Under the pieces are notes generated by a model. It made no database searches and was not told where the DNA came from. It worked only from the letters and a program-made list of their open reading frames with translations. From NCBI GenBank assembly GCA_965223505.1, contig CBDCWP010000040.1, forward strand, positions 160,001 through 224,000: a stretch of 64,000 bases of DNA, in the 5' to 3' direction. The position numbers and the translations under genes are program-made. This DNA comes from Planctomycetota bacterium. GTDB lineage: Bacteria > Planctomycetota > PLA2 > JAEUHO01. Positions 1 to 50,500 of this stretch are shown piece by piece (the first letter of the stretch is position 1; each line of letters starts with the position of its first letter).

Positions 1-3428
<3,428 letters not shown>

Positions 3429-3606
3429 GGACTCTCCGACGGAGAAAGGCGCCGAGTGATGAAGGGTGCCGGAAACCCTCGTGATACCGACGTGATTGTG
3501 CCTTGACCGACCGCCAAAGGAAGAACTGCTCCCGGGTCCTGTTCGTGAAGCGGCGAACGGATCCTTACGATCGGCGTTCCCGTACGACACCCCGTGGAGT
3601 GAAGAC

Positions 3607-29056: not shown

Positions 29057-30490
29057 CTAGTCTTCACCCTCGAGCGATCTGATCAGCTCGTCCGCGGCGG
29101 CCCTGAGCTTCTCCGGAAGGGCGTCCCGCAACCGGCGCAGGTTCGGAAGCAGCGCCTTGTCGTCGAGCTCACGCGCCAATTCGAGCAGTTCCGTGAGTCG
29201 GCGCTCGTCGTCGGACTCGATGTCCCATCCGACCAAACGTCCGAACAGGATCTGGCGCTTCGTGCCCGACGCCGACTTGGCGGCATCGACGAGAGTGAAG
29301 CGACACTCGGTCCAGTTGCCTTCGACGGCCATCTTGGCCGCGGCGCCGACCAGCGTAGTGTCCGACGAGTCGAGCGCCGCACGCCAGCGTTTGCGCGCCT
29401 CGCTCTCGTCGCCGCCACGCAGCATGTGCAGCGCATAGAGCAGGGAACGAGCGTCGTCCAGCGTGTCGTTCGCGAGCCGCTCGCGAGCGAACGCGACGGT
29501 CTCCTCGGAGGGCTCGACCGAGACGATCAAGACGCGCTCGACCTCGGCGGAGACGCCCGCCTCGATGGCGTCCATCGCAAACTCTGCGAAGTCCTCGGGC
29601 GGGAGCTGGCTCTTGAGGCAACCAAGTGCCGATTGCTTGACGTTGGCCGCGGCGTCGCCGGTCACGATCTTCGCGACGGCATCCCTGTGCTCGAAGTCCG
29701 GCGCGTAGCCTAGGCCCTTCAGAGCCGAGAATCGAATCGTGTCATCGGCGTCGTTGATGTACGGCGCGAACACCGCAGCGCAGACCGACCCCTCATGGGC
29801 CGCCGCCTGCATCGAAAGCCCGCCCAGCACCTTCTGCAGCGTCGCGACGCGGCGCTTCTCCCGCGCCTCGAACAACACGCGCGCGACGTCGCCGTCGGAC
29901 GCCGTCTCGATGACCGAGTCGATGTCCTCGTCCCACCCCTGGGCCAGCAGGCGCTCGGCGACCGTGGTCTCCACCGGGATTCCGCTGTACGTCAGACACT
30001 CGAAGGCGGTCTTGCGAACGAGCGTGGACGGATGCTCGAGCGCTTGCTCGAACTCGCTCCGAAGCGCCGGGTCGTTCTTCAGCCGCTCGTAGTCCGGCTT
30101 CGAGGCGCCGAACTCACCGAACACGAGCTCGTTGAGGTACGCGGCGTACTCCACCGAGCTTCGAACGGCGCCGGTCTCCGGCGTCGGCTTGAAGTACGCG
30201 AACAGCGCGAACGCGACGACGAGCACAGCGGCCGCCGCATAGGCGAAGCCACGCCGGCGCATCGCAACCCGTCGCTGCGCGCGCCCGAAGATGGCCTCCG
30301 CGCGCGCTTCCGAGATCGGCTCCACGACGGAGGCCGCGCCGCGACGCATGTCCTGGATGGACCGCCGTGCGGACTCGCAGTGCGCACAATCCGAGAGGTG
30401 CGCGAGGCTCTTCGCGTCGAGCTCCGCTTCGTCGATCAGACGGCGGAACACGATGTCGCATTGCTGGGACACGTCATGCGTCATCGCCAT
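29057..30490 (-). CDS. Anti-sigma factor (ZAS-like HxxxCxxC, TM helix, HEAT repeats)
   Basis: AHLSDCAHC; TM AAAAVLVVAFALFAYF; overlaps the ECF gene. Confidence 0.8.
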   Translation of the reverse strand: MAMTHDVSQQCDIVFRRLIDEAELDAKSLAHLSDCAHCESARRSIQDMRRGAASVVEPISEARAEAIFGRAQRRVAMRRRGFAYAAAAVLVVAFALFAYFKPTPETGAVRSSVEYAAYLNELVFGEFGASKPDYERLKNDPALRSEFEQALEHPSTLVRKTAFECLTYSGIPVETTVAERLLAQGWDEDIDSVIETASDGDVARVLFEAREKRRVATLQKVLGGLSMQAAAHEGSVCAAVFAPYINDADDTIRFSALKGLGYAPDFEHRDAVAKIVTGDAAANVKQSALGCLKSQLPPEDFAEFAMDAIEAGVSAEVERVLIVSVEPSEETVAFARERLANDTLDDARSLLYALHMLRGGDESEARKRWRAALDSSDTTLVGAAAKMAVEGNWTECRFTLVDAAKSASGTKRQILFGRLVGWDIESDDERRLTELLELARELDDKALLPNLRRLRDALPEKLRAAADELIRSLEGED

Positions 30491-31130
30491 CCCCTTTCCG
30501 CATGTCGCGCAGTCGGCGAAGGCCCCGGCTCAATCGCTGATACACGGCGGCCGCGGAGACCGAGTGCAGCTTGGCGATCTCCGCGGGCGATACGCCGTAG
30601 GCGAAGTGCAGAACGACGGTCTGTCGTTCCGCGTCGGGCAGCTTCTCCACACCCTTCCAGGCGTTCGGCGCCTCGGCGGGCGAAGTCCACGCGCCTTTGC
30701 CATGTTGCGTCTCGCCGAGCAGCTCCGGACGGCGCTTGCGAAACTGATCGCGGCCGACGTTCTTGCAGATCACGACGAGCCACGGTGTGACGGCTCGGGC
30801 CGCGTCCAGCTTCCTGTGAGCACGGAACGCCCGGAACCAGGTCTCGCCGACCACCTCGTCGATCTGCGCACCGCGCGCCCCGGCCGCGAGCGTGATGTAC
30901 TCGAGCAAGGGTTGCAGGCATCGGACGAGCAAGGTCCAAGCTGGTGGTTCTCCTTTACGCAGGCGGTGCCGAAACGCGGGGGTTTCGATTTGGCTGCAAT
31001 CGGACCTACCTCCGCCACCCGTTGGGGCAGCGGAATCGGTCAGCGGTTGCCCGGCGTTTCCTTCGCTTCCTTCGCGCTTTCCCAGCGCATCTCCGTCGGA
31101 AGTACGATTCTGGCCCCCGGGCTCTGACAT
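30474..31130 (-). CDS. ECF RNA polymerase sigma factor
   Basis: WLVVICKN..RD.FRKR (region 2); LPDAERQTV..SPAEIA..VYQRLSRG (region 4); start uncertain. Confidence 0.85.
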   Translation of the reverse strand: MSEPGGQNRTSDGDALGKREGSEGNAGQPLTDSAAPTGGGGRSDCSQIETPAFRHRLRKGEPPAWTLLVRCLQPLLEYITLAAGARGAQIDEVVGETWFRAFRAHRKLDAARAVTPWLVVICKNVGRDQFRKRRPELLGETQHGKGAWTSPAEAPNAWKGVEKLPDAERQTVVLHFAYGVSPAEIAKLHSVSAAAVYQRLSRGLRRLRDMRKGDGDDA

Positions 31131-31173
31131 GGATTGTGAGACTAATGTGCGGCGGGCTGCAGAGCCCTAGTTT

Positions 31174-31248
31174 TGGCTGCTCCGAGAGGGTTCGAACCCC
31201 CACCCGCCGGTTCAGAGCCGGCGATGCTACCGGTTACACCACAGAGCA
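31174..31248 (-). tRNA. tRNA-Gln(CTG)
   Basis: Cloverleaf; GCCGG-CTCTGAA-CCGGC; encoded CCA. Confidence 0.9.
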
Positions 31249-31256
31249 GCGGCGGC

Positions 31257-31331
31257 TGGTGCTCCGAGAGGGAGTTGCACCCCCATCGCGGGATTCGTAG
31301 TCCCGAATGCTGTCTGTTACACCATCGGAGC
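31257..31331 (-). tRNA. tRNA-Arg(ACG)
   Basis: CGGGA-CTACGAA-TCCCG; T-loop TGCAACT; CCA. Confidence 0.85.
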
Positions 31332-31335
31332 TTGT

Positions 31336-31413
31336 TGGGGTGAGCGACGGGACTCGCACCCGCTTGCCCCGGCGTCACGGGCCGGGTCCTCGACGACTTC
31401 GGAATCGCTCACC
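31336..31413 (-). tRNA. tRNA-His(GTG), atypical
   Basis: G-1:C73 pair; CCGGC-CCGTGAC-GCCGG; T-loop TGCGAGT; CCA. Confidence 0.8.
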
Positions 31414-31420
31414 AGGAAAC

Positions 31421-31497
31421 TGGTAATCCCGGCAGGAGTCGAACCTGCAACTTCCGGTTTCTGAAACCGGCGCCTCTGCCAGTTGGGCTACGGGATC
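31421..31497 (-). tRNA. tRNA-Leu(CAG) with short variable loop
   Basis: CCGGT-TTCAGAA-ACCGG; 5-nt variable region; CCA. Confidence 0.85.
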
Positions 31498-31506
31498 TCG
31501 AGAAAA

Positions 31507-31576
31507 TGGGGCCCACGGGAAGACTCGAACTTCCGTCCGCTCTTTACGAGAGAGCATCTGCGCCTTGCGCGCGGGC
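31507..31576 (-). tRNA. tRNA-Thr(CGT) with truncated D-arm (possibly pseudo)
   Basis: GCTCT-CTCGTAA-AGAGC; T-arm GGAAG-TTCGAGT-CTTCC; only 70 nt; CCA. Confidence 0.65.
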
Positions 31577-31584
31577 TCGTTGAA

Positions 31585-31660
31585 TGGCTGGCGCGGTCGG
31601 ATTCGAACCAACATGGTCCCGGTCAACAGCCGGGCGCCTTACCAGATCGGCCACACGCCA
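31585..31660 (-). tRNA. tRNA-Asn(GTT)
   Basis: CCCGG-CTGTTGA-CCGGG; U1:A72; CCA. Confidence 0.88.
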
Positions 31661-31661
31661 T

Positions 31662-31735
31662 TGGTACCGGGCCACGGAGTCGAACCGCGTAGGTCGGGGT
31701 CATGAGCCCCGCCGGAGACCGTCTCCACGCCCGGG
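31662..31735 (-). tRNA. tRNA-Met(CAT), initiator-like
   Basis: C1xU72 mismatch; CGGGG-CTCATGA-CCCCG with consecutive G:C pairs; unusual D-arm; CCA. Confidence 0.78.
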
Positions 31736-31736
31736 T

Positions 31737-31813
31737 TGGTGTCTCGAGGAGGCCACGATCCTCCATCTCACGGGGTAAGAACCCGGCGCTCTGCCCACTT
31801 GAGCTATCGAGAC
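31737..31813 (-). tRNA. tRNA-Lys(CTT)
   Basis: CGGG-TTCTTAC-CCCG; normal D-arm; T-loop ATCGTGG; CCA. Confidence 0.8.
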
Positions 31814-31821
31814 GTGTTGTT

Positions 31822-31898
31822 TGGCGCGAACGACGAGACTTGCACTCGCTTCCTTCGGCTCGACAGGCCGACGTCTCGTCTCCTTCGACTTCGTTCGC
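31822..31898 (-). tRNA. tRNA-Asp(GTC), atypical
   Basis: TCGGC-CTGTCGA-GCCGA; G73; T-loop TGCAAGT; CCA. Confidence 0.8.
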
Positions 31899-31900
31899 AT

Positions 31901-31977
31901 TGGTACGGACGACGAGACTCGCACTCGCTTACTCCGGGTTGAGGGCCCGGCGCCTCGGCTTCTTCGGCTTCGTCCGC
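31901..31977 (-). tRNA. tRNA-Glu(CTC), atypical
   Basis: CCGGG-CCCTCAA-CCCGG; T-loop TGCGAGT; CCA. Confidence 0.8.
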
Positions 31978-31987
31978 AAAGGTTCGC

Positions 31988-32062
31988 TGGTCAGGGTGGG
32001 AGGACTCGAACCTCCGTCTGCCTGCCTCCGAAGCAGGCTGTCTGCCGCTGACGTACACCCTG
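31988..32062 (-). tRNA. tRNA-Pro(CGG)
   Basis: C1:G72, A73; CCTGC-TTCGGAG-GCAGG; CCA. Confidence 0.88.
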
Positions 32063-32074
32063 AAAGTTGATTGT

Positions 32075-32149
32075 TGGACCACTCGGTGGGATTCGAACCC
32101 ACGCCTCCACGATGGCACCGTGGTGTGCTGCCGCTGACACCACGAGTGG
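32075..32149 (-). tRNA. tRNA-Gly(GCC)
   Basis: CCACG-GTGCCAT-CGTGG; U73; CCA. Confidence 0.86.
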
Positions 32150-32150
32150 T

Positions 32151-32224
32151 TGGTTCCGCGAGACGGAGTCGAACCGTCGTCCACCGGATTTCACCCGGTC
32201 GCTCTGCCGTTGAGCTATCGCGAC
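32151..32224 (-). tRNA. tRNA-Phe(GAA)
   Basis: ACCGG-GTGAAAT-CCGGT; 1:72 mismatch; CCA. Confidence 0.85.
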
Positions 32225-32226
32225 GT

Positions 32227-32297
32227 TGGCACGCGCCCACGGAGTCGAACCGCGCCTCCGGGGGTTGGAGCCCCGTGCGCCCCAAGGCGTAGCGCGT
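32227..32297 (-). tRNA. tRNA-Trp(CCA) with minimal D-loop
   Basis: CGGGG-CTCCAAC-CCCCG; G73; 71 nt; CCA. Confidence 0.78.
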
Positions 32298-32411
32298 GCG
32301 TGTCTAGTGTCTGACTTGGAGATACCAAAGAGCGGAGCGCTCGAAGGCACGGCGGTCTTCGGTCGCGAAATGGGGATCGGACGAGACGATTGGCGACGCC
32401 AAATCGAGTCC

Positions 32412-32518
32412 GAAGGGGGCGTCCCCCTCTTCAAAGAGACGGGACGCGTCTAGGCGAACAGATTGAGATTCGCGAGACCGCGCGGTTCACCGAACCGACG
32501 TGCGCAGCCTCGCCACAT
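32412..32518 (-). promoter_or_regulatory. Candidate leader peptide and alternative hairpins upstream of the tRNA array
   Basis: GAGGG-N4-ATG, 22-aa ORF (32518-32450) followed by overlapping hairpins at 32446-32412. Confidence 0.35.
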
Positions 32519-32690
32519 ACCGCCCTCGAGGACGATCGCGGGCTCCGGCAAATGGCGGCGCAGACAGATCACGAGAGCTACGACGCGCGCCACGTCCGAC
32601 GGGTTCCGTCGAACCGAACCCAAAAAGCGGTTCGCCCTCCGGATCACCGTACCGCTACCATGTCGCGCCGCACCGCTGCGAGGTCGCGTC

Positions 32691-33962
32691 TTGGAATGGA
32701 AACTGACATTGGACGTTCGATCGGGACCCGATGAGGGCCTGCGGTTCCAATACGTCATCAGGAGTGAGATCGTCTTCGGGCGCGAGGGCGAGAAGGACGC
32801 CGAGGGACTGCGCCCCTCCGACCTGCGCGTCAGTCGCAAGCACCTCACCCTCGCGCCCGACGAGGCCGGTGTGAAGGCCGCAATGCTCAGCTCCCAGCGC
32901 AGATTTCTTCACAACGACCGCAAGGTGGGGGAAGCAACGCTCGTCGACGGCGATCGCATCCGCTTGGGCGCCAGCACCTATGCCGTCGCTCTGCGACGCA
33001 TGGGCCGCGACGACGAGGAAGGACCCGACCCGACGGCACTCGCCGCCGAAACGACAACCGACAACATCACGGTCAACGCGCTGAGCGATCTCGAGCTGCT
33101 GGATGAGATCGGCCGCGGGGCCATGGGCCGGGTGTTGCGAGCGCGCGACAAGGCAGGGCGAAACCTGTGCGTCAAGCTCGTTCGTCAAGACTTCAGCGAT
33201 CCCAAGTCCACGGATGCCATCGTCCCCTTCTTTCTGCGCGAAATGGACCTGCTCGGCGCGCTCGTCCATCCCAACATCGTGCGCACGCTCTACGCCGGCC
33301 CTGCGGAGGGCGAGATGTACCTGGGGATGGAGTGGGTCGACGGGCGTAACCTGGAGCAGGAAGTGACGGTCGCCGGCAAGCTCCCGCTGCTGGACGGGTG
33401 CGCCGTCGGACGACAGCTCCTGAGCGCGCTGGTGTGTGCCCACGAGCACGACGTCGTTCACCGCGACGTGAAGCCCGACAACGTCATGATTCGCGGCGAA
33501 CGGGGCGCATTACACGCGATCCTGATCGATTTCGGCCTCGCTCGCATCGTCGGCGAGGCCGGTGACGAGGGTCTCACGGCGACGGGCGAGGCGCGTGGGT
33601 CCTACGCGTACTCACCGCTCGAGTGTCTGGCTGACGCCAAGCGTGCGAAACCACCTGCGGATCTGTTCGGCGCCGCGGCAACGCTCTACTTCGCGCTGAC
33701 GGGCTCGCCCTACTACGACGAAGAGCTCGCCGCGCAGGGGATGCCCAACGTGTTCGGCGGGAAGAGCATCGTCCCGCTTCGCGAGCGCCGCGACGACGCG
33801 CCCGAGAGTCTCGCAAGGGTGATCGAGAAAGGGCTCGCGATCGAGCCTGAAGATCGGTGGTCGTCAGCGGCGGAGATGCTCGAGCGCCTGGTCGTTGCGG
33901 AAGGGGAAGTGCTGCGCGCCTCCGCCAATACCAGTGAAGCTGCGAAGGGCGTTCAGCGATAG
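32691..33962 (+). CDS. FHA-domain Ser/Thr protein kinase
   Basis: FGR..VSRKH (FHA); GRGAMGRV, VKL, HRDVKPDN, DFG; TTG start uncertain. Confidence 0.88.
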   Translation: MEWKLTLDVRSGPDEGLRFQYVIRSEIVFGREGEKDAEGLRPSDLRVSRKHLTLAPDEAGVKAAMLSSQRRFLHNDRKVGEATLVDGDRIRLGASTYAVALRRMGRDDEEGPDPTALAAETTTDNITVNALSDLELLDEIGRGAMGRVLRARDKAGRNLCVKLVRQDFSDPKSTDAIVPFFLREMDLLGALVHPNIVRTLYAGPAEGEMYLGMEWVDGRNLEQEVTVAGKLPLLDGCAVGRQLLSALVCAHEHDVVHRDVKPDNVMIRGERGALHAILIDFGLARIVGEAGDEGLTATGEARGSYAYSPLECLADAKRAKPPADLFGAAATLYFALTGSPYYDEELAAQGMPNVFGGKSIVPLRERRDDAPESLARVIEKGLAIEPEDRWSSAAEMLERLVVAEGEVLRASANTSEAAKGVQR

Positions 33963-36039: not shown

Positions 36040-39000
36040 TCACTCGTCCTTGACGACCACTCCCAGGTACGCGCCAGCCGCGGCCCATCCCCGCGATTCC
36101 CTGGCCGAGGCGACGAGCAGGCCGTCGCCACTCTTCGCCGCAATCATCTGAACTCGCAGGAATCTCGTCTCGCCGGCCGCAAGGCGATCGATGATCCGCT
36201 TGTGTTCCGCATCGCCGACACCTTCCAACCCCGCATCACCTCGGACGGAATAGACCACGTCTCGCAACTCCAGCGTGCCCGTGTTCTTCACGGCCAGCAA
36301 GGCCGCGAACATCTCGCCCTTCTTGACCGCCCCCGGAGCCTCGATGTAGGTCTGCAGTTGTAGCGTCTTGGGACGACCGCGCGTGACGAGATGTTCAGCC
36401 TTCTTGGCCACTACGTCCATGTACACGCCGGCCGCGGCCCAACCTCGCTCTTCACGTGCCGAGCCATTCACGCGCCAAGTGCCCTCCTCCTTTGCTACGA
36501 ATGAGACTTTCAGAGTGCCACGGCCTTTGAATTCCTCGAATCGTGTAACTGCATCCGATGGATCAGTCACGAGTTCGAGTCCCGTCCCTCGCGCTGCGAG
36601 GGTCACGCTGGAGAGAGGATAGAGTTTGTTTCTCACAGTGAACACCACCTCGAACGGTCTCCCGACGACGACCGTCGCAGGACCATCGGCTTCCATCTCC
36701 ATGGCCCACGTGACGCCCCGCGCCGTGTCTGAGGGCGGACCCGGATTGCTTGGCAACGAAACGACAGGGCGAAAACCACCCCCACCACTGGACGTATCGG
36801 GGGTGTACCTCCCGCGAACCGCCGCACGAACGCTCCAGGGACCATAGCCGAACGAACCTCCACGCATGACGCGCAGCGTGCCCGTGGGCGGCCCGCCGGG
36901 ATCGACCAGATTCGAGCTCGCGTAGTAGGTCTCTGAAAACCAGTCGGAGCACCACTCGTACAAGTTCCCCAGCATGTCGTGAAGACCAAAGCCGTTGGGG
37001 AGGTGGGACCCCACGGGCGCCGTGTCGCGGAAGCCGTCGTCTCCCGGAAACGCCAGTCCGGGAGTGTCGGGACTCTCCTCCTTCGTCTTTGCGTCGAGTC
37101 CATTCGCATACAGATGGGCCTGCTCGTCACTCGCACCCCAAAAGCACTTCGTCGTCGTTCCTGCACGACACGCATACTCCCATTCGGCCTCCGTGGGCAG
37201 GCGGTAGGTGGCGCCCCTTGGTCTGTCCCAGGGGTTCTGAGAGTTGAGCCACGCAAGGTAGCAGTCACCCTCTCCGTCTCCTTGTGGACCGGCGATGTCT
37301 TCATGGCTCACTCTGGCGACCGGATGATCGGCTCCACTCCGGCTGTCGTTCTTGTCGTGATCCGGCCTCCACGCCCGATACTGAGCATTCGTCGTCTCCG
37401 TGGTCTGCATGTAGAACGCCCTCGTGATCGTCACGTCATGGGCGGGATCCTCGGCCGTGAGCCACTCGGCCTCGACGTACGCATCTTCCGCCATGATCTT
37501 CTGACGCTCCGCGTCCGAAGAGCCCATCGTGAACTTGCCCGGCGGGATCAGGACGAAGCACATCCCCAAGTCGTTCCCCCACGCGACCGGCACACCCAAC
37601 CACGCAGCCACTCTCTGCTGCTCCACACTGACCTTCGCCCATTCGGGCACACTCGACGTATCGCGGATCGGCAGCGAGACGACGAGGCGAAACCCCTTCT
37701 CCGAGTCAGCGTACGCGTCGCCAAGAAACCCCAGTCGCGCTGCGGCCGACATGTAGCGCGGCGGATCTCCGTAGCTCGCGCCGCGAACGAGCCGCCCCCC
37801 TTCGGCAGGTCCGCGAGGGTCCCCTGCGGGCGACGCGGCGTAGTACGCTGGGTCGTACCGGTCAGCACACCACTCGGACGCATTGCCGAGCATGTCGTAC
37901 AGGCCCCAGGGGTTCGGTAGAAACGATCCCACAGGTGCAGTCACGACGTGTCCGTCCTCCTTCGGAAACACCGGGCCGGCGACGAGCTGTGACTTCGTGC
38001 TCTCGATCCACCTCTTCGTCTCGGGGTCGAGGCCGTTGGCGTAGCGGTGAGCGTCTTCGTCGCGGTCACCCCAGAAGTACTTCGTCGTCGTCCCGGCGCG
38101 GCAAGCGTACTCCCACTCGGCCTCGGTCGGCAGGCGGTAGGTCACACCCTCCGGCCCGCTCGTCCACGCTTGCTCGTTCAACCAACGCAGGTAGAAGGAC
38201 TCACGACTACCGTCGGCACTACCGGCAATGTCTTGGTAACTGACCCGCACGGCGGGCTGGTTGTCGCCGTTCAGGCTGTATCGCCCGTCGGACCCGCTGT
38301 CATGAGCGCCGTTCCAAGTGCGGTACTGTGCATTCGTCGTCTCGGCCATCTGCAGGTAGAACGCGCGGGTGATGGTCACCTCGTGCTGCGGCCGCTCGTC
38401 CTTTTGGCTCCCCGGTTCCGACACCGGTGCGCCCATCTTGAAGCTCCCCGGCGGAATCAGGACGAACCGCATCCCGATGGCGTTTTCCCAGGCCACCGGA
38501 ACGCCGAGTCGCTTCGCTTCGTCCTTCTGCTCGTCGCTGACCTTTGCCCACGTGGGTGTCTGGTCATTCTTCGAAAGCGTCACGCGGACCACCAATTCGC
38601 CTCTCAACTCATCCCCGTCCTTGACCTCTAGCTTGATCGCAACTTCGCCTTCATTCTCGTACGTGTGCTTCCATGTGAAGGGACCTGCTCCCTCACGAAC
38701 GCGCTCGCCGTCGATGAACAAGACGTCGGTCCTCCGGCCCGTCGAGACCGTTCCTCGCACTTCGACCGCCATGGTCTCGACCCGACTCCCGTCCACCGGG
38801 CTCGTCACCTCGACTGCCGGAGGCGACTTCCATTTGGCAATCGCACCGGACAGCGCTTGGGGAATGTCACCTGCCGCAACCCCCTGCTTCCGTGCTTCGG
38901 TCAGCTGAGCCTCGGCCTCTTCGATGTCGCCGGTCTCCAGCGCCGTCAGCGCCGCTGCCAGCGGCGCCTCCCACGGTTTCGACGCGGGCGCGTAGGTGAC

Positions 39001-40284
39001 CGTACGTTCGACGACCTCTGAACGATTCCCAGCCGCGTCCACCGCTTCCAGACGTACCACGACAGTCTCGCCGTCTCTCAGCGTCCGCCGGACCGCGAAC
39101 GCGCCGTCCATGAGCGCTTCGATCTGCTCTACACCGTCCACGAGGAAGCTCGCGAGGTGCTCGTCGACGACGGTTCCCGAAATCACGACGTCCGGACCGT
39201 CGACCGTGACGGCGGGCCCCTTCGGATTGGTCAGGGTGATGACCGGCGCCGTCGTGTCCGACACTGGATCCGGGGATTCAGGTCCCGGTTTCTCCATCAC
39301 GGTGCCAATGGGTTTCTCGGAGGTGGCACTGTCGAACACGCCGCCGAAGTGGAGCCCCGCGCCGATGAGCATGGCCAGCGCCGCGATGAGCAGCGGCCAC
39401 CGCCGTCGGCCCCCGGCGGACGTCCCGACGCTCGATGGCGGGGCCGGTCGACGCGCGCCTTCCCCGAAGGCCTTCGCGAACGACGCGCAGTCTTCGTAGC
39501 GCTCGTCGCGGTCGAGGCTCAGCGCCTTCTCGATCGCGTCGGCGCACCCTTGTGGAACTGAGTCGACACGGTCTCGTACCGAGGGCGGCGGTTGCACCAG
39601 CTTGAGGTTCGCGGTCTTGAACGGGGTGCGTCCCGCCAGCGCCGCGTAGACGGTGCACGCCAACGCGTACTGATCGGCGCGGGCGTCGATGGTATCGGCG
39701 CCGGCACCCTCGACGATCTGCTCCGGGGCCGCATACCCGGGCGTGAACATCTTCATCTGGGTCGCAGTCATGCCGGCTGTGGTGCCGCTGAGCGCCTTGA
39801 CGATGCCGAAGTCGGACAGCACGGGACGGCCATCCGCGTCGAAGAGGATGTTGCCCGGCTTCACATCGCGATGGATCACGTCCACTTTGGCAACAGAGTC
39901 CAATGCCTCGGCAACGGGGAGCAGCCACTCGAGCACCTGCTCCGGCGTCTGTGTGCCGCGCTTCAGGCGCTCATCGAGGGTGCCGCCCGGCAGGTACGCC
40001 ATCACGAAGAACGGCATCCCTTCGTGCTCTCCCTGATCGGAGATGTAGACGACTCCGGGTAGGTGGCGCAGGCGGATCTGCTGCTTGATCTCGCGCTCGA
40101 ACTTCTTCTTGAGCGCGGGCGTTACGAGCAACTCGTCCTTCGGGACCTTGATCGCGACGGAGTCGTCGTCCATGCGGTGATCGACGGCTCGGTAGACGTC
40201 GGCCATACCGCCGCCGCCGAGGCGTTCCATTACCTCGTAGCGGTCGAGCAGTGTCGCTCCAATGAACTCAACCGAGTCGCTCAT
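36040..40284 (-). CDS. Ser/Thr kinase - TM - Ig-like - two FGE-sulfatase domains - two Ig-like repeats (paralogue 1)
   Basis: GGGGMADVY, HRDVKPGN, DFG, APEQ; two RLPTEAEWEYACRAG and two GFR-type ends; start taken at MSDSVEF. Confidence 0.93.
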   Translation of the reverse strand: MSDSVEFIGATLLDRYEVMERLGGGGMADVYRAVDHRMDDDSVAIKVPKDELLVTPALKKKFEREIKQQIRLRHLPGVVYISDQGEHEGMPFFVMAYLPGGTLDERLKRGTQTPEQVLEWLLPVAEALDSVAKVDVIHRDVKPGNILFDADGRPVLSDFGIVKALSGTTAGMTATQMKMFTPGYAAPEQIVEGAGADTIDARADQYALACTVYAALAGRTPFKTANLKLVQPPPSVRDRVDSVPQGCADAIEKALSLDRDERYEDCASFAKAFGEGARRPAPPSSVGTSAGGRRRWPLLIAALAMLIGAGLHFGGVFDSATSEKPIGTVMEKPGPESPDPVSDTTAPVITLTNPKGPAVTVDGPDVVISGTVVDEHLASFLVDGVEQIEALMDGAFAVRRTLRDGETVVVRLEAVDAAGNRSEVVERTVTYAPASKPWEAPLAAALTALETGDIEEAEAQLTEARKQGVAAGDIPQALSGAIAKWKSPPAVEVTSPVDGSRVETMAVEVRGTVSTGRRTDVLFIDGERVREGAGPFTWKHTYENEGEVAIKLEVKDGDELRGELVVRVTLSKNDQTPTWAKVSDEQKDEAKRLGVPVAWENAIGMRFVLIPPGSFKMGAPVSEPGSQKDERPQHEVTITRAFYLQMAETTNAQYRTWNGAHDSGSDGRYSLNGDNQPAVRVSYQDIAGSADGSRESFYLRWLNEQAWTSGPEGVTYRLPTEAEWEYACRAGTTTKYFWGDRDEDAHRYANGLDPETKRWIESTKSQLVAGPVFPKEDGHVVTAPVGSFLPNPWGLYDMLGNASEWCADRYDPAYYAASPAGDPRGPAEGGRLVRGASYGDPPRYMSAAARLGFLGDAYADSEKGFRLVVSLPIRDTSSVPEWAKVSVEQQRVAAWLGVPVAWGNDLGMCFVLIPPGKFTMGSSDAERQKIMAEDAYVEAEWLTAEDPAHDVTITRAFYMQTTETTNAQYRAWRPDHDKNDSRSGADHPVARVSHEDIAGPQGDGEGDCYLAWLNSQNPWDRPRGATYRLPTEAEWEYACRAGTTTKCFWGASDEQAHLYANGLDAKTKEESPDTPGLAFPGDDGFRDTAPVGSHLPNGFGLHDMLGNLYEWCSDWFSETYYASSNLVDPGGPPTGTLRVMRGGSFGYGPWSVRAAVRGRYTPDTSSGGGGFRPVVSLPSNPGPPSDTARGVTWAMEMEADGPATVVVGRPFEVVFTVRNKLYPLSSVTLAARGTGLELVTDPSDAVTRFEEFKGRGTLKVSFVAKEEGTWRVNGSAREERGWAAAGVYMDVVAKKAEHLVTRGRPKTLQLQTYIEAPGAVKKGEMFAALLAVKNTGTLELRDVVYSVRGDAGLEGVGDAEHKRIIDRLAAGETRFLRVQMIAAKSGDGLLVASARESRGWAAAGAYLGVVVKDE

Positions 40285-40335
40285 TCGACGCACAGGGTAA
40301 GGAACACGACGCCCCGCCACCACCGCCAACAGCCA

Positions 40336-42740: not shown

Positions 42741-45700
42741 CTACTTCGACGGCAGTGAAACGACGAGGCGGAAGCCGACCGTCCAGTCGACATCACCGTC
42801 AGGTGGCAACCCGCGGCGGCTCGCACATCGGACTTCCCTGGGCGGCGACTTCGACGATCCGCCGCGACACACACGAAGGCTCCCCGAGGATGGTCCCGCC
42901 GGATCCGACAGTGGCGACTTGCTGTAGTAGTCGTGCGCGAACCAGTCCGAACACCACTCGCTCACATTCCCAAGCATGTCGTAGAGACCGAATCGGTTCG
43001 GGCGGTAGGAACCGACGCTCGCATTGACGATGGCACCGTCGTCCTTCGAGAGCGTCGACCACTCCCAACCGGTCGAGAGCCTTGCCTCTTCGTCGGCTGC
43101 ATTCGCATGGAGAGCCGCATCGGCGAGGCCATCGCCCCAGTAGTAGAGCGAGGAGGCACCTGCGCGGCAGGCGTACTCCCATTCGGCTTCCGTCGGCAGG
43201 CGGTAGCTGGAACTTTCGGGCGCGCGTCCGTCCTCTCGCGCGTTGAGCCAAGCAAGATAGCAATCACCCTTGCCGTCGCCACGATCGCCGGCGATGTCCC
43301 GGTAGTTGATCCCAGGCGCCGGCTGCCCGAGATAGAAGAGTTGATAAAGCAATTCGGACTTCGGACCGGGAAGCACGTAGCCGGGGTCATGATCCGACTT
43401 CCACACTCGATACTGGCGGTTGGTCGTCTCCGCGACCTGCATGTAGAACGCGCGCGTGATCCGCACCGTATGTTGCGGGCCCTCATGATCGAGCGGGCTA
43501 CCTGCATCGCCGTCGCTGAAGCGCTTACGCTCCTCAGGCGTGGATCCCATCTTGAACGTGCCGGGCGGAATCAGGACGAATCTCATCCCAATGCCGTTCT
43601 CCCAGGCAACCGGCACACCCCTGCGCTCCGCCTCCGCCGTTTGCTCGTCACTGACGCGGGCCCACTTGGGAGTGCGCGGCTCGTGCGCGGCGAGTGACAC
43701 GGCGAGCCGGAACCCTCCCATCCAACTTGTGGGGTTCACGTCGCTGCGGGTGCTCCTTGCGCCGCAGCGGGTCCGAAAGACCTGGTCCTGGGCGGAAAAA
43801 CCTCGCCGAACCCAGAAGGTGCCACCGATCGGCCCCTGAGGATCGATCGCGTGAGAGACTTCGTAGTATCTGCGGTGGTACCAGTCCGAGCACGTCTCAC
43901 TGACGTTTCCGAGCATGTCGTAGAGACCCCAGCCGTTGGGTCGATACGACCCCACCGGGGCGGCCACGCGATGACCGTCGTCGGCCATCAGGTAGGCACC
44001 CTCAATATCCTCCCCCAACTCAGGCAACAGCTTCCTGGTCTCGACATCGAGCCCGTTCATGTACTGGTGCGCGTCTTCCCCACGATCGCCCCAGAAGTAG
44101 CGTGTCGTAGTTCCGGCTCGGCATGCGAACTCCCACTCTGCCTCCGTAGGAAGCCGGTACCTGACGCGTCGGGGCCCCTTGCTCCACTTCCTGGAATTCA
44201 ACCAGGCAACGAAGCAATCTCCGTCTCCTAGAAGGTGTTCCCCCAAGATCTCGAAGTGGTCGACGCCACAGACCGGCTGCGTATCGCCGTTGAGTGAGTG
44301 CCCCAGGCAGTCCTCGCTGTCGTGGTCTGGCCGCCACTCCCTGTACTGCGCATTTGTGGTCTCCGTAATTTGCAGATAGAAGGCGTGCGAAACCTGCACT
44401 CGATGCTGAGGTGCTTCTTCGGAGTACGCGTCGGTCCACCACTCAATCGACCTCTCCCGCCGCACTTGCTCTCGCTCAGCCTCAGACGTCCCCATCGTGT
44501 AGGTCCCTGGGGGGATCAAGACGAAACGCATTCCGATGTCGTTCTCCCAAGCGACAGGGACTCCCAACCGCTCCGCTTCCGACCTCTGTTCCGCACTGAC
44601 CCCCGCCCAGGCAGGTACCGATCGGCTCTCTCTCTCCCAGGTTTCCAGTTGTGTGCGCGCGCCTTCGTCGATTCTCGCAGTGGGCACGCCCGCATCGACC
44701 GCCGCGTCCAGCTGCTTGCGCGCCTCCGGCCAATCCTTCTCTGTGACTGCCGCGATGAACGCTGCCAGCGGCGCCTCCCACGGTTCAGGCGGTCGTTCGT
44801 AGGTCACGGTTCGCTCGACGACCTCGGAGCGGTTGCCCGCCTCGTCCACCGCCTCGAGTTGAACGGTGATCGCCTCTCCGTCCTTCAAGCCCGTCCGTCG
44901 GATGGTGAACTTCGTCCTGTCCGTCAACGTCTCGATCTGCTCGACGCCGTCCACCAGGAAGCTCGCAAGGTGCTCCTCGATGATCGAGCCTTCGATGACG
45001 AACTCGGGCTGATCGACCGTGTGCGTCGCCTCCGCTGGACTCATGACCGTGATGGCGGGCGCAACCGTGTCGAGAGCTACGGAAGGCTTGCTCGGCCCGC
45101 GCTCGGGTTTCGCGACTTCGATCGGGTCGGTCTTGGACGAGCGATCGAAGACACCACCGAAGTAGAGCGCGGCACCGAGAGCGAGAACGAGCAGTAGCGC
45201 GGTTGCGGGCATCCGCCACCCGCCGCGCACCGCTTCCTCGTCGACGAGGGTCGTGGACTTCGAGATCGGCGGCGCTGCCGGTGTCTCGGCCGCGCCGACC
45301 TTGAACGCCGCGGCAAACGCCCTGCAGTCCGCGAAGCGCTCGTTGCGATCCAGACTGAGCGCTCGCTCGAGAGCGTCCGCGCACCCCTCCGGCACCGTGT
45401 CCACCAGCTCCCGCACCGACGGCGCGGGCTTCACGAGCTTCAGGTTCGCCGTGTCGAACGGCGTCCGGCCCGCCAGCGCCGCAAAGACCGTGCAGGCCAG
45501 CCCGTATTGGTCCGCCCGGGCGTCGATGGTGTCCGCCCCCGCTCCCTCGACAATCTGCTCGGGCGCCGCGTAGCCCGGCGTAAACATTTTGAGCTGCGTT
45601 GCGGTCATCCCAGCGGTTGTGCCGCTGAGCGCCTTCACGATGCCGAAGTCCGAGAGCAACGGCCGACCTTCGGCATTGAACATGATGTTGGCCGGCTTCA

Positions 45701-46121
45701 CGTCGCGGTGAATGACGCCCACACTCGCCACGGAGTCCAGCGCGTCTGCGACCGGCGCGAGCCAACGCAGCACCTCCGCGGGGGTCTGCAGCCGGTCACT
45801 CAGGCGCTCCTCGAGCGTACCGCCGCTCAGATAGGCCATGACGAAGAAAGGGAGGCCCCGGTGTTCGCCTTGGTCGTAGATGTGGACGACGCCCTGCAGG
45901 TGTCGCAGTCGGATCTGCTGCGTGATCTCCTTCTCGAACTTGCGCTTCATCGCCGGCGTAACGAGCAGCTCCGCCTTGGGCACCTTGATGGCGACCGAGT
46001 CATCGTCCATGCGGTGGTCGATCGCCCGGTAGACGTCCGCCATGCCGCCGCCGCCTAGGCGTTCCACCACCTCGTAGCGGTCGAGCAGCGTCGCTCCGAG
46101 AAACTCCGTCGACTCACCCAT
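42741..46121 (-). CDS. Ser/Thr kinase - TM - Ig-like - two FGE-sulfatase domains (paralogue 2)
   Basis: Same kinase motifs as paralogue 1; two RLPTEAEWE(F/Y)ACRAG; ends GFRLVVSLPSK. Confidence 0.93.
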   Translation of the reverse strand: MGESTEFLGATLLDRYEVVERLGGGGMADVYRAIDHRMDDDSVAIKVPKAELLVTPAMKRKFEKEITQQIRLRHLQGVVHIYDQGEHRGLPFFVMAYLSGGTLEERLSDRLQTPAEVLRWLAPVADALDSVASVGVIHRDVKPANIMFNAEGRPLLSDFGIVKALSGTTAGMTATQLKMFTPGYAAPEQIVEGAGADTIDARADQYGLACTVFAALAGRTPFDTANLKLVKPAPSVRELVDTVPEGCADALERALSLDRNERFADCRAFAAAFKVGAAETPAAPPISKSTTLVDEEAVRGGWRMPATALLLVLALGAALYFGGVFDRSSKTDPIEVAKPERGPSKPSVALDTVAPAITVMSPAEATHTVDQPEFVIEGSIIEEHLASFLVDGVEQIETLTDRTKFTIRRTGLKDGEAITVQLEAVDEAGNRSEVVERTVTYERPPEPWEAPLAAFIAAVTEKDWPEARKQLDAAVDAGVPTARIDEGARTQLETWERESRSVPAWAGVSAEQRSEAERLGVPVAWENDIGMRFVLIPPGTYTMGTSEAEREQVRRERSIEWWTDAYSEEAPQHRVQVSHAFYLQITETTNAQYREWRPDHDSEDCLGHSLNGDTQPVCGVDHFEILGEHLLGDGDCFVAWLNSRKWSKGPRRVRYRLPTEAEWEFACRAGTTTRYFWGDRGEDAHQYMNGLDVETRKLLPELGEDIEGAYLMADDGHRVAAPVGSYRPNGWGLYDMLGNVSETCSDWYHRRYYEVSHAIDPQGPIGGTFWVRRGFSAQDQVFRTRCGARSTRSDVNPTSWMGGFRLAVSLAAHEPRTPKWARVSDEQTAEAERRGVPVAWENGIGMRFVLIPPGTFKMGSTPEERKRFSDGDAGSPLDHEGPQHTVRITRAFYMQVAETTNRQYRVWKSDHDPGYVLPGPKSELLYQLFYLGQPAPGINYRDIAGDRGDGKGDCYLAWLNAREDGRAPESSSYRLPTEAEWEYACRAGASSLYYWGDGLADAALHANAADEEARLSTGWEWSTLSKDDGAIVNASVGSYRPNRFGLYDMLGNVSEWCSDWFAHDYYSKSPLSDPAGPSSGSLRVCRGGSSKSPPREVRCASRRGLPPDGDVDWTVGFRLVVSLPSK

Positions 46122-47587: not shown

Positions 47588-50500
47588 TCATTTGGACGCC
47601 CCCAGACTCGCGAGCCAGTTCAGGTCGCCCAAGTCGGTGATCTCGTACGCACTCTCAAGACGATCGACCTTCTCCTTCCCAATCGCCTCTTCCAACTTCT
47701 TCTGATGCTCGAGCCGTAGCGGGATCATCTCTCCGAGCTTCTCGATGATCAGAGGGAAGTACTTGGCGGCCGCGGCGGGCCGCTTCGACTCATCCTGACG
47801 GGCCTCTTCGAGCTCACGGCGTACGTCATCGGCCGACGTGCTCCCATCGGCAAGAAGCTCATAGACGGCGGACATCGTCTCGCGAGTGATGCGGCGAACG
47901 GATTCTTGCTCCTCGGCTGTGAGACCGAGATCCGCAGCCGCGTGTGCGAGCGTGACCTTCTTTCTGGGATGCTCGATGGTGACTGCAAGACGGAAGCCCA
48001 ATGTGCCTTCCGAGAGCGGCAAACTGCGTTCAGCGGGTTTGGCGCTTGCGCGGTTCGAAGACCGCAAGACGTACCATGAAGCACGCCAACTTCCGCCGCG
48101 GAGCGCGCGCACCGGAGTCTCGGTTCCGGGGGTCGCGACCCTCGGGTCGGCCTTGGGCGAGGACTTGTAGTAGGAGGGGTCGTACCAATCAGCGACCCAC
48201 TCCCAAACGTTGCCCAGCATGTCGTAAATGCCGAAGCCGTTCGGAAGATAGGACGCAACAGGCGCACTCACGGCATGCCCGTCATCTTCGGGGAATCCCT
48301 GCGACCATCCGGCGTTGGCGTATCGATGCCCGATTTCATGGCTTTCTCCCCAGAAGAACGGCTTCGAAGACCCGGCACGGCACGCGTACTCCCACTCGGC
48401 TTCGGAGGGAAGGCGGTATGCCATGCGGTCCGGCGTCCCGGGCTCGAACCGGTTGTTCAACCAGTCGAGAAAACAGTCGCCATCGCCGTCGCCCTTCGTT
48501 CCGGCGATGTCATGGTGGCTCACGTGGACGGCGGGCTGTTCGTCTCGATTCAGGCTCTGGCTATGGCTGGTGCCGCTGTCGTGACCGGACTTCCAATGCC
48601 TGAACTGCGCATTACTGACTTCCGTGGTCTGCAGGTAGAACGCGCGGGTGATCTGCACCTCGTGCCGGGGAAACTCCTGGCGGTACCAGTCCCTCTGCTG
48701 GCTTGGCTCCGCCTCGATGATGTCTTCGATCTCCTCGTCCGTGGCTCCCATCATGAACGTACCCGGCGGAATCAGGACGAACCGCATTCCGAGGTCGTTC
48801 TCCCACGCCACAGGAACGCCGAGCCGTCTCGCCTCGCGCTTCTGCTCGTCGTTGACCATTGCCCAGGAAGGAACTCCCTGATTCGCCTCCCAGTCTTCGA
48901 GCCTCTTTCGCAACTCGGACGGGATCTGCGACTCCGGAACGCCTGCCTTGATCGCGGCGTCCAGTTGCTTGCGAGCCTCCGGCCAATTCTCCTGCTCGGC
49001 CGCTCCACGAAACGCCGCGAGCGGTAACTCCCAGGCGGCGCGCTGCCGCGCTGCCGGCGTTGGCAGTGACGCCACAAGGCGAAAGCCCAAGCAGCCGTGC
49101 CCCGGGGGCTTCTGGCCATCGCGCCGCGCGTGTCGATACTCGCGGCTGTGGCTACAGGCTCCCTTGGTCACACGCACAGCACCCGTCGCGGGCCCCATCG
49201 GATCGATCGACGAACCCGGCCGGAAAGGCGCAAACCAGTCACTACACATCTCGTTCACGCTCGCGACCTGATCGTAGATGCCCCATGGACTCGGCCGGTA
49301 GCTGCCGACATTCCCTTGCGAAAACGACCCCGAGCTTGGGTCGATCTCGTCCCCGCCGTACGGACGCGCGCCCGCACCGTCATCGCCCCAAAAGTAGATC
49401 GTGTCGGTTCCCGCTCGAGCCGCGTGCTCCCACTCCGCCTCCGTTGGGAGGCGGTACCTCGTCGCCCCGTCGGCACGCTCAGTCAGCCATGTGGCGAACT
49501 CCATCGCCTCGACATGCGTGATGCAAGTTGCCGGCTGCTCGTCTCCGTTGATCTCATACGCGTTCTCGATGCGATCGCGTTCCACGTCCTTGAACGCGCT
49601 GACGTGCTCCGGCCGCCAGCGACGATACTCACGATTCGTGACTTCCGTGATCTGCAGGTAATACGCTTTCGTCAGCGTCACGCGATGGATCTGCTCATCG
49701 CTCGCCTTGTGATCCTCTGTTGCGACAGCGCCAGGACGCCGGCCCATGCGAAACGTCCCCGACGGAATCAGGACGAAGCGCATGCCAATCTCGTTTTCGA
49801 AGGCGACGGGGACGCCGAGCCTCTCGGCCGCGACCTTCTGTTCGTCGGAGACCTTCGCCCACGCCAACTCTGGAGAGGCCTTGGCCGGTGACGCTTCTCG
49901 AGGACGCTTCAATGGCAGCGGAAACCGATCTCTCATGTCACGCGCAACGTCCGCAAGCTCATCGCGCAGCTTCCTAAGCCGACGTTCGTCGCTGCTCGTC
50001 AGCTTCCCTTTGCGGGTCCACTTCTCCTCGGACATGCGCAGGGCATTGGCCAACTTCGTGACTTCCGACAAGTCCTTGAGGTGACGCTTGACTTCACGAT
50101 CGAGACTCTTGTCGTAGACCCTGTTCGCGTACTTCTTTAACGCGCCATAGAGACTCGACACCTTCACCCTCGTCAGAGCGTAGACGTGGTCTCCTCCGTC
50201 ACCTGGTAGCAGTGCCGCCGGGGTCACGAACACCAGCCGGGGAACGTCCCTCTTGTAGTCGCCTGACAAGAGAGGATCCAGGTTGGCGTCCTCGGGTGTC
50301 ATCCGAAGGGTCCGAAACGCCTGCAGGCCCAAGCTGACCTTGTGGTCCGGGAACACGATTAGCTCGATCTTCTCCGAGTCGCTGTCGTCCTTCTCGTTCC
50401 GCACGTAGATCAGTAGCGGCTTGTCGACCGGTGTCGCAAGAACCACCTTCCCGTCGGAATCCACCTTGGCGATCCGCGTGACCCGCTCCCAGGCGACTGT

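Follow-up and report, generated by a model that had tools for sequence, protein, structure and literature searches.

Why would a bacterium keep a second, densely packed set of tRNA genes when its housekeeping tRNA genes already supply every anticodon concerned, and why would the anticodon loops of that second set differ from those of the host? The question is raised by a 64,000-nucleotide stretch of DNA (the window: positions 160,001 to 224,000 of contig CBDCWP010000040.1, assembly GCA_965223505.1) from an uncultured member of the Planctomycetota. The window belongs to a metagenome-assembled genome (MAG) of 5.15 Mb that has 68% GC and is 92% complete (here G000). On the minus strand, from 32297 to 31174, 14 tRNA genes occupy 1124 bases; their spacers measure 1-12 nt, and CCA is encoded in 14 of 14. 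A preliminary description of this region had reported unusual anticodon loops and proposed that these tRNAs are selected to bypass modification enzymes or to resist anticodon nucleases. We found that the locus is a redundant, structurally constrained tRNA operon that is matched to the codon usage of the host and carries loops of an array type. As a description this result is solid; the function of the operon is a proposal.

Results

The array duplicates anticodons already present in the host

The genes of the array are, in order, Trp(CCA), Phe(GAA), Gly(GCC), Pro(CGG), Glu(CUC), Asp(GUC), Lys(CUU), an initiator-type Met(CAU), Asn(GUU), Thr(CGU), a CAG tRNA with a short variable arm (Leu by its anticodon), His(GUG), Arg(ACG), and Gln(CUG). 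Every one of these anticodons is also supplied by a housekeeping gene in G000. The array anticodons fit the most-used codon of the host for 13 of the 14 amino acids, the exception being Leu, for which CUG (0.40) is used slightly less than CUC (0.42). The preliminary description covered 31336..32224, which spans 11 of the 14 genes; Trp, Arg, and Gln fall outside, and Thr(CGU), at 31576-31507, is added here.

Array tRNAs differ from their housekeeping partners in the loop and never in the anticodon

We compared each array tRNA with the housekeeping tRNA of the same anticodon in G000. All 14 differ at one or more of positions 32, 33, 37, and 38 (22 of 56 positions), and there was no difference at any of the 42 anticodon positions. 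The substitutions listed in the preliminary description were all there, and none is found in the housekeeping partners. The array Pro(CGG) and Leu(CAG) tRNAs have A37, whereas the housekeeping loops (positions 32-38) are UUCGGGA and UUCAGGU, with G37. Conversely, array Asn, Asp, and the initiator-type Met have G37, and their partners (CUGUUAA, CUGUCAA, and CUCAUAA) have A37. The C33 of array His and Glu replaces the U33 of UUGUGGU and CUCUCAA, and the combination of G32 with U38 in array Gly and Phe is absent from UUGCCAA and CUGAAAA.

The housekeeping state holds well beyond G000. Across the family, all 30 housekeeping Pro(CGG) genes have the loop UUCGGGA, with G37, and G37 is found in 23 of 25 Leu(CAG) genes. 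In the five other genomes that have arrays (below), the housekeeping tRNAs have A37 in Asn (4 of 4) and Asp (4 of 4), U33 in Glu (5 of 5) and His (5 of 5), and G37 in Gln (5 of 5) and His (4 of 5). Housekeeping Pro(CGG) is 100% identical in G000, G001, G008, G042, and G044, and the array tRNAs diverge widely. The array tRNAs evolve far faster than housekeeping tRNAs.

Selection maintains the fold of the array tRNAs

The preliminary description took the paired stems as an argument against random decay, and the comparison among arrays supports this well. Of the 918 stem cells in 10 orthologue groups, drawn from seven arrays, 905 were paired (98.6%); the mean for shuffled sequences was 85.9% and the maximum of 1000 shuffles was 88.2%. 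Among 170 stem pairs, 78 had changed on both sides and are compensatory, 13 had changed on one side only, and 79 never varied. The tertiary contacts covary as well. Among 64 array tRNAs, 52 have U55 together with GG in the D loop and 10 have G55 and lack the GG, with one exception in each direction; in four of the seven array Lys tRNAs the 54:58 pair has gone from U54-A58 to A54-U58. We conclude that the cloverleaf and the L-shape are maintained by selection.

These non-canonical elbows have a pattern of their own. T loops with U54-G55-C56 go with AG in place of GG in the D loop in Arg, His, Gly, and Glu; in the window they lie in 31257-31413 and 31822-31977, and the A54...U58 of Lys lies in 31737-31813. 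They are found in orthologues too.

The marks by which tRNAs are charged have also been kept. The discriminator base is the same as that of the housekeeping partner in 13 of 14 array tRNAs in G000, with Thr differing. Further marks equal to those of the housekeeping tRNAs are C1-G72 in Pro, U1-A72 in Asn and Gln, A1-U72 in Trp, and G-1:C73 in His. The initiator-type Met retains a C1xU72 mismatch, which the housekeeping initiator-type gene also has, and the GGG/CCC anticodon stem. Such marks in the acceptor stem and at the discriminator position are determinants for aminoacyl-tRNA synthetases. Because the array tRNAs have retained the cloverleaf, the tertiary elbow, and the identity marks for synthetases, it is most likely that they are charged and serve in translation.

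Some loop traits are conserved among homologous arrays and others are recent

Five other MAGs of this family (G001, G003, G017, G042, and G044) and two metagenome contigs carry homologous arrays, of 7-14 genes. One of these contigs (L027, from M027) differs from the G017 array at 1 of 770 bases; it was omitted from the counts of variability, from those of covariation, and from the Fisher test, and is included in the totals "of 8" and "31 of 31". The Thr gene of G042, which lacks CCA, was not parsed and is uncounted.

The most consistent trait is the absence of G37 after G36. Array tRNAs with G36 had G37 in 0 of 31 cases (Pro 5, Leu 3, Arg 8, Gln 7, and His 8), or 0 of 27 when the near-duplicate contig is set aside. 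A37 was found in array Pro(CGG) in five of five and in array Leu(CAG) in three of three. After U36, G37 occurred in 4 of 20 tRNAs, compared to 0 of 27 after G36 (Fisher p = 0.027, for lineages that are not independent). This difference hints that G36-G37 may be avoided and not merely never sampled.

The claim of systematic rewiring made in the preliminary description thus held for one group of traits and not for another. Along with the traits above, the conserved group includes G37 in array-type Asp (two of two, in G000 and in a homologue at G001:C98), U38 in Gly (seven of seven), and C32-C33 in Glu (two of two, in G000 and G003, in genes that sit on different scaffolds). The second group is confined to particular lineages: G37 occurs in 2 of 8 Asn and 1 of 2 Met tRNAs, C33 in 1 of 8 His, G32 in 3 of 7 Gly, and G32 with U38 in 1 of 3 Phe. 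Position 37 of array His is A in four and C in four.

Variability along the loop was uneven. The mean pairwise difference per site was 0.30 at position 32, 0.03 at 33, 0-0.06 in the anticodon (with positions 35-36 invariant), 0.13 at 37, and 0.40 at 38, compared to 0.2-0.5 in the stems, and U33 was kept in 61 of 64 array tRNAs. The low difference at 33 and, less so, at 37 indicates that U33 and position 37 are under purifying selection and that 32 and 38 are nearly free. Taken together, array loops follow array-type rules and not host rules, with one part conserved across the lineage and another part made up of recent, lineage-specific changes.

Several other features of the homologous arrays were apparent. 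The contig with the Asp homologue (L018, G001:C98) carries a second mini-cluster of G001 on the minus strand (approximately 3241-3526 of the reverse complement), with array-type genes for Ile(GAU) and Asp(GUC, loop UUGUCGA), each of which has a G55 T loop. Inserts of approximately 55-165 nt directly follow some array tRNAs: in G042 (L016) at approximately 2850-2987 and 3228-3350, in G044 (L017) at approximately 1843-1985 and 2147-2202, in L028 at approximately 950-1072, and between array tRNAs in G003 (L013). Each consists of one or two strong hairpins, mostly ending in a duplicate of the T loop, the acceptor 3' strand, and the CCA of an upstream tRNA. From this arrangement the inserts resemble the trace left by a small element directed at the 3' ends of tRNAs. 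No copy of the hairpin core was found in G000 at up to 5 mismatches.

The sole difference between the G017 array (L015, G017:C112, 578-654) and L027 (1831-1907) in their 770 bases is at anticodon position 36 of the Pro-scaffold tRNA, which reads CGG in L027 and CGC in G017. The G017 copy retains C1-G72 and G3-C70 and is an Ala anticodon on a Pro body, a tRNA that might be inactive or might mistranslate. In Streptomyces there are similar tRNA-Pro species with an Ala anticodon.

Arrays were found in six genomes of a single family

Arrays were present in 6 of 29 genomes of the family (G000 and the five above), in 4 of 16 genera, and were not found in the other 23, all counts being from incomplete MAGs. 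There were none in 11 genomes of the sister family, and none in any other family among 401 sampled genomes of the phylum, with two candidates scored per genome. A search with the array-Asn pattern found the same five MAGs among the Genome Taxonomy Database (GTDB) genomes and two metagenome contigs. Single matches to the Leu scaffold occurred in five other planctomycete genomes; in three genomes of the family such matches are the housekeeping Arg(CCU).

The genes that flank the arrays differ between genera, and we found no conserved synteny. The HEAT-repeat proteins beside the array show no relationship between G000 and G003 (E = 1.2), and the sigma factors have only generic ECF similarity. The distribution may be scattered: the arrays are in six genomes of four genera and have unrelated flanks, all are in one family, and mobility genes were not found.

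Copies of the 3' half only of housekeeping tRNA genes, exact or 96% identical, are present at G000:C39:237640-237681 (outside the window), G001:C41:2972-3020, and G001:C10:5067-5113. They derive from housekeeping tRNA-Pro(CGG), 13.7 kb from the gene, and from housekeeping tRNA-Asn, and on this evidence look like attachment-site duplications left by integrated elements.

The array belongs to a known class of supernumerary tRNA clusters

L-arrays have been reported from seven phyla, Planctomycetes among them, and a scattered distribution that suggests horizontal spread is one of their marks; they are silent by default, and translational stress induces those of Anabaena (Santamaria-Gomez et al. 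2021, PMC8421152). Like them, the locus described here consists of closely spaced genes on one strand, 14 in number, that add redundant isoacceptors to a full housekeeping set, and its distribution among relatives may be scattered. The tRNA array units of Tran et al. (2015/16, PMC4758250), also listed for Planctomycetes among other phyla, have at least 20 tRNA genes at a density of at least 2 per kb; our array, with 14 genes in 1124 bases, is dense enough and has fewer genes. Unlike for both, no adjoining homing endonuclease gene and no plasmid context were found, and this lineage of arrays was found in one planctomycete family only.

The tRNA clusters of phages are similar in another way. Loop mutations in these clusters have been proposed to make the tRNAs insensitive to anticodon nucleases of the VapC, PrrC, and colicin types (van den Berg et al. 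2023, PMC10264068). The list of mycobacteriophage C1 tRNAs in the supplement of that paper, inspected by eye, includes Asp and Met with G37, Gln and His with A37, a short Leu(CAG) with A37, and a 71-nt Trp. As in those clusters, the loops here are altered relative to the host at 32, 37, and 38 and the anticodon is unchanged. Phage tRNAs that evade anticodon nucleases would differ from the host tRNA at a site of nuclease cleavage or recognition (PMC10264068); in the array, 14 of 14 tRNAs have a loop different from that of the host tRNA.

The cluster of Gordonia phage Boopy (MK894436.1) has the loops CUGUCGA (Asp), UUGAAGC (Phe), CUCUGAC (Gln), CUCUUAC (Lys), and UUGUGAU (His), and Leu tRNAs of 75-76 nt with A37. 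Variants common to the planctomycete arrays and Boopy are Asp CUGUCGA, Phe UUGAAGC, Gln CUCUGAC, C38 in Lys, A37 in His, and A37 in a short-arm Leu. Unlike the phage clusters, the planctomycete array is chromosomal and has no phage genes nearby, and array Pro(CGG) has A37 compared to G37 in the phage Pro tRNAs inspected. Searching the whole array with blastn against 50,697 phage records gave only matches to single tRNAs, mostly to the Leu scaffold (25 records); Trp and Gln had no match in these records and Asn had one weak match. The array-Asn pattern had no match in IMG/VR viral contigs.

The array CAG tRNA is 76% identical to a Gordonia phage type-I Leu(UAG), compared to 54-59% for housekeeping type-II Leu(CAG). 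We considered and rejected a derivation of this tRNA from housekeeping Arg(CCU): the G000 copy is 77-81% identical, but the copies in G001 and G003 are 68-71% identical, and the phage type-I Leu is equally close, at 76%.

A third comparison is with the mycobacterial tRNA array units, plasmid and chromosomal, that are "considered a putative antidefense system" with a function to be determined (Yano et al. 2026, PMC12803027). They are described as redundant bacterial, non-phage clusters in which the D arm and the anticodon arm are unlike those of chromosomal tRNAs, and by that description the planctomycete array resembles them. It differs in phylum, in its smaller set of genes, and in having no recognisable plasmid. 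Nuclease evasion has thus been proposed in print for phage tRNAs (PMC10264068), and the idea has been carried over to the array units of bacteria (PMC12803027). Based on the redundant, dense operon and the loop variants in common with actinophage clusters, we conclude that the locus belongs to the known supernumerary class of L-array or phage-type tRNAs.

Gene calls, sequence confirmation, and neighbours of the array

The positions of the genes and the support for each are given in Table 1. With default settings, ARAGORN called 11 of the array tRNAs and missed Glu(CUC), Asp(GUC), and Thr(CGU). The Rfam tRNA model (RF00005) matched 10 of the 14 genes at 44.3-59.6 bits, for a gathering score of 29; Trp, Met, and Thr had no match at E<=1, and His matched only tRNA-Sec, at 28.7 bits, below the cut-off. 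A uniform cloverleaf parse gave 14 genes. Thr rests on this parse and on ARAGORN calls of Thr in the G003, G017, and G042 arrays. The three tRNAs missed by the Rfam model (Trp at 32227-32297, Met at 31662-31735, and Thr at 31507-31576) have lengths of 70-74 nt; their D regions, of 14-17 nt, lack the usual D loop, a form that is kept in orthologues. Contigs from a second sample of the same study, at low depth, match 31146-31497 and 31915-32400 with zero differing letters; we use them as confirmation of the sequence only. Among the public runs listed for 30400-33000 there was no RNA run, and the four runs compared are contigs of one study.

Table 1. Features of the tRNA array and its borders (positions in the window; all features on the minus strand)
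Feature	Position	Strand	Support
Intergenic region 5' of first tRNA, expected promoter site	32298..32462	-	no promoter identified
tRNA-Trp(CCA), 71 nt, reduced D arm, loop CUCCAAC, A1-U72, G73, CCA	32227..32297	-	ARAGORN, parse; 71-nt orthologues in G001, G003
tRNA-Phe(GAA), loop GUGAAAU (G32, U38), G1-A72 mismatch, A73	32151..32224	-	ARAGORN, Rfam 49.4 bits, parse
tRNA-Gly(GCC), loop GUGCCAU (G32, U38), U73	32075..32149	-	ARAGORN, Rfam 50.8 bits, parse
tRNA-Pro(CGG), loop UUCGGAG (A37), C1-G72, A73	31988..32062	-	ARAGORN, Rfam 51.5 bits, parse
tRNA-Glu(CUC), loop CCCUCAA (C32, C33), T loop UGCGAGU (G55), D loop without GG	31901..31977	-	Rfam 44.3 bits, parse
tRNA-Asp(GUC), loop CUGUCGA (G37), T loop UGCAAGU (G55), G73	31822..31898	-	Rfam 50.5 bits, parse; ARAGORN at lowered threshold only
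tRNA-Lys(CUU), loop UUCUUAC (C38), T loop AUCGUGG (A54...U58)	31737..31813	-	ARAGORN, Rfam 49 bits, parse
Initiator-type tRNA-Met(CAU), loop CUCAUGA (G37), C1xU72 mismatch, GGG/CCC anticodon stem, short D arm	31662..31735	-	ARAGORN, parse
tRNA-Asn(GUU), loop CUGUUGA (G37), U1-A72, G73	31585..31660	-	ARAGORN, Rfam 56 bits, parse
Probable tRNA-Thr(CGU), 70 nt, reduced D arm, loop CUCGUAA, C73	31507..31576	-	parse only: pairs 7/7 acceptor, 5/5 T, 5/5 anticodon stem
Type-I (short variable arm) CAG tRNA, Leu by anticodon, loop UUCAGAA (A37), G1-U72, A73	31421..31497	-	ARAGORN, Rfam 59.6 bits, parse
tRNA-His(GUG), encoded G-1, C73, loop CCGUGAC (C33, A37), T loop UGCGAGU (G55)	31336..31413	-	ARAGORN, parse
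tRNA-Arg(ACG), loop CUACGAA (A37; housekeeping G37), T loop UGCAACU (G55), D loop AG not GG	31257..31331	-	ARAGORN, Rfam 52.5 bits, parse
tRNA-Gln(CUG), loop CUCUGAA (A37; housekeeping G37), U1-A72, G73	31174..31248	-	ARAGORN, Rfam 50 bits, parse
ECF-type sigma factor gene, Pfam Sigma70_r2 and r4_2, 43 nt 3' of array	30474..31130	-	Pfam

The sigma factor gene is followed on the same strand by a HEAT-repeat gene (29057-30490). The only hairpin in the gap between the array and the sigma factor gene, on the minus strand, lacks a U tract. The array may share a transcript with this ECF (stress) sigma factor gene, a linkage that is not conserved in other arrays. A gene for an FHA-domain kinase, divergent from the array, begins at 32463. 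A scan with the sigma-70 consensus found no sites in 30300-32800, terminator-like hairpins were no commoner than in shuffled sequence, and the composition profile had no island-like shift in GC beyond the slightly lower GC of the tRNA genes. Elsewhere in the window, genes at 36040-40329, 42741-46121, and 47588-52384 encode three very large proteins with an N-terminal Ser/Thr kinase domain and a C-terminal domain of the FGE-sulfatase type; they adjoin genes for an FHA-domain kinase and an FHA-trypsin protein.

Discussion

A proposed second pool of decoders

As the likeliest reading, we propose that the operon could provide a second pool of decoders beside the housekeeping tRNAs. The array loops would not be recognised by factors that read host-type anticodon loops, that is, tRNA-cleaving or tRNA-modifying toxins, and translation of core codons would continue at times when housekeeping tRNAs are damaged or in short supply. 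Some modification enzymes might, as a side effect, also fail to recognise the array tRNAs. That the arrays are a second decoder pool that escapes recognition of host-type anticodon loops is, in our judgement from the comparison of sequences, about evenly balanced between right and wrong.

Several observations count against this proposal. No tRNA-targeting nuclease was identified, and no PIN or VapC domain was found in G000. This genome is only 92% complete, so the failure to find a PIN domain is no proof of absence, but we rejected VapC as the selecting nuclease on this ground, and the proposed escape is left without an identified antagonist. The kinship with phages is limited as well. Array tRNAs other than Leu are 51-70% identical to Gordonia phage tRNAs, no closer than to their own housekeeping partners (60-74%), and so the loops in common may reflect convergence or states that are simply tolerated. 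Searches with Pfam and PHROGs of the flanks of five arrays found no gene of a phage, an integrase, or a homing endonuclease (0 of 13 proteins with PHROGs). There are also signs of erosion: U-1 in place of G-1 in four of eight array His tRNAs, always together with C37; the mutation of one anticodon from CGG to CGC; and acceptor mismatches in array Phe. The His and Pro changes fit weak selection. Finally, many of the loop changes are confined to particular lineages, including the G37 of Asn, of Met (the G003 orthologue has A37), and of Lys (two of eight), the C33 of His, the G32 of Gly, and the G32 and U38 of Phe. A37 is not confined to arrays either. In two relatives that lack an array, G022 (L086, G022:C368) and G043 (L087, G043:C35), the type-II housekeeping Leu(CAG) has the loop CUCAGAA, and there was no second Leu(CAG) gene among the matches listed for either genome. 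A37 is therefore tolerated there without an array.

Alternative explanations

Much of this would be expected if the arrays were a little-used, horizontally inherited spare set in which the fold, the anticodon, and the capacity to be charged are selected, positions 32, 37, 38, and rarely 33 are weakly constrained, and odd loops are inherited or neutral. Tolerated drift of this sort would account for the lineage-specific substitutions in Asn, Met, His, and Lys, for positions 32 and 38 being as variable as stems, for the alternation of A and C at position 37 of His and the loss of its G-1, for the fact that the one change between G017 and its metagenome counterpart struck an anticodon, and for the 23 genomes of the family without an array. 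It does not readily explain why G37 is missing after G36 and present after U36 (with the same reservation about independence of lineages), why the A37 of Pro, the G37 of Asp, the U38 of Gly, and the C32-C33 of Glu persist amid turnover of the stems, or why the same loop variants recur in unrelated phage clusters. We regard drift as a possible explanation, though on the unlikely side. Decay of a more complete kind, into pseudogenes, or an artefact of assembly might be suspected from the three genes without an Rfam tRNA match, the His gene with only a match below the cut-off, and the acceptor mismatches. It is hardly credible given the 98.6% of stem cells that are paired, the 78 compensatory pairs, the tertiary covariation, the identical sequence in the contigs of the second sample, and the homologous arrays in five other MAGs and two metagenome contigs.

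The altered positions are presumably the targets of TrmD, of the enzymes that make N6-threonylcarbamoyladenosine at position 37 (t6A37), and of TruB, TrmA, and TadA. Bypass of modification could thus be the selected trait, with a set of tRNAs that works without TrmD (1-methylguanosine 37, m1G37), the t6A37 machinery, TruB (pseudouridine 55), TrmA (5-methyluridine 54, m5U54), and TadA, for example when enzymes or cofactors are limiting. TrmD requires G36-G37, and the absence of this pair from 31 of 31 tRNAs fits such a bypass, as do G37 after U36 in 5 of 23, G55 in 11 and A54 in 4 of 64 tRNAs, and Arg(GCG) in place of Arg(ACG) in G017 and L027. Yet TrmD is present in G000 (183.6 bits) and the housekeeping tRNAs depend on it, so bypass is not forced. 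Moreover, A37 is kept in 18 of 23 tRNAs with U36, U54-U55 in most tRNAs, and A34 in six of eight Arg tRNAs; many bacteria normally have A37 in their Arg, Gln, and His tRNAs, which we also count against bypass; and no regulatory link to modification genes was seen. We consider bypass as the selected trait to be decidedly unlikely. A use outside translation, in which the array tRNAs would be aminoacyl donors for the synthesis of peptides, cell envelope, or natural products, or would be regulatory RNAs, would leave the loop positions related to decoding free to vary, and the identity marks at the acceptor end are indeed better kept than 32, 37, and 38. The 32-38 pair tunes binding to the ribosome. 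We find a use of this kind very improbable, since the anticodons are invariant and matched to the codons preferred by the host, U33 is kept in 61 of 64 tRNAs, no transferase or biosynthetic genes adjoin any array, and fourteen amino acids are covered, initiator type included.

The second decoder pool could also be conceived more strictly, as an emergency decoder that is complete in itself and serves the 14 codon families used most, with loops positively selected to be invisible to a lineage-specific toxin or defence enzyme that targets tRNAs. We think it rather unlikely that this stricter version is correct. If it were, the exclusion of G36-G37 even in Pro and Leu would point to an enzyme that reads G36-(m1)G37; the C32-C33 of Glu, the G37 of Asp, and the elbows with G55 and A54 would be further marks of escape; and decoding without TrmD, t6A, pseudouridine 55, and m5U54 would make the array a natural tRNA set with minimal modification.

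Significance

With these findings, the range of loop-altered tRNA clusters of the phage type is extended to an operon on the chromosome of uncultured Planctomycetota. A housekeeping set that changes slowly and a spare set that changes rapidly are present in the same genomes, and this makes for an unusually clean comparison of the positions that must stay (the anticodon, U33, the stems, the elbow pairs, and the discriminator) with those that can be rewritten (32, 37, and 38, and indeed 54, 55, and 58). Should the spare tRNAs prove to be active, they would offer a test of the proposal that such clusters counter tRNA-cleaving toxins, and the tRNA-Pro(CGG) and short-arm tRNA-Leu(CAG) with A37 would be natural test cases for decoding without m1G37. 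We believe that the value of the array lies in this comparison of spare and housekeeping tRNAs and in the conserved A37 of these two tRNAs.

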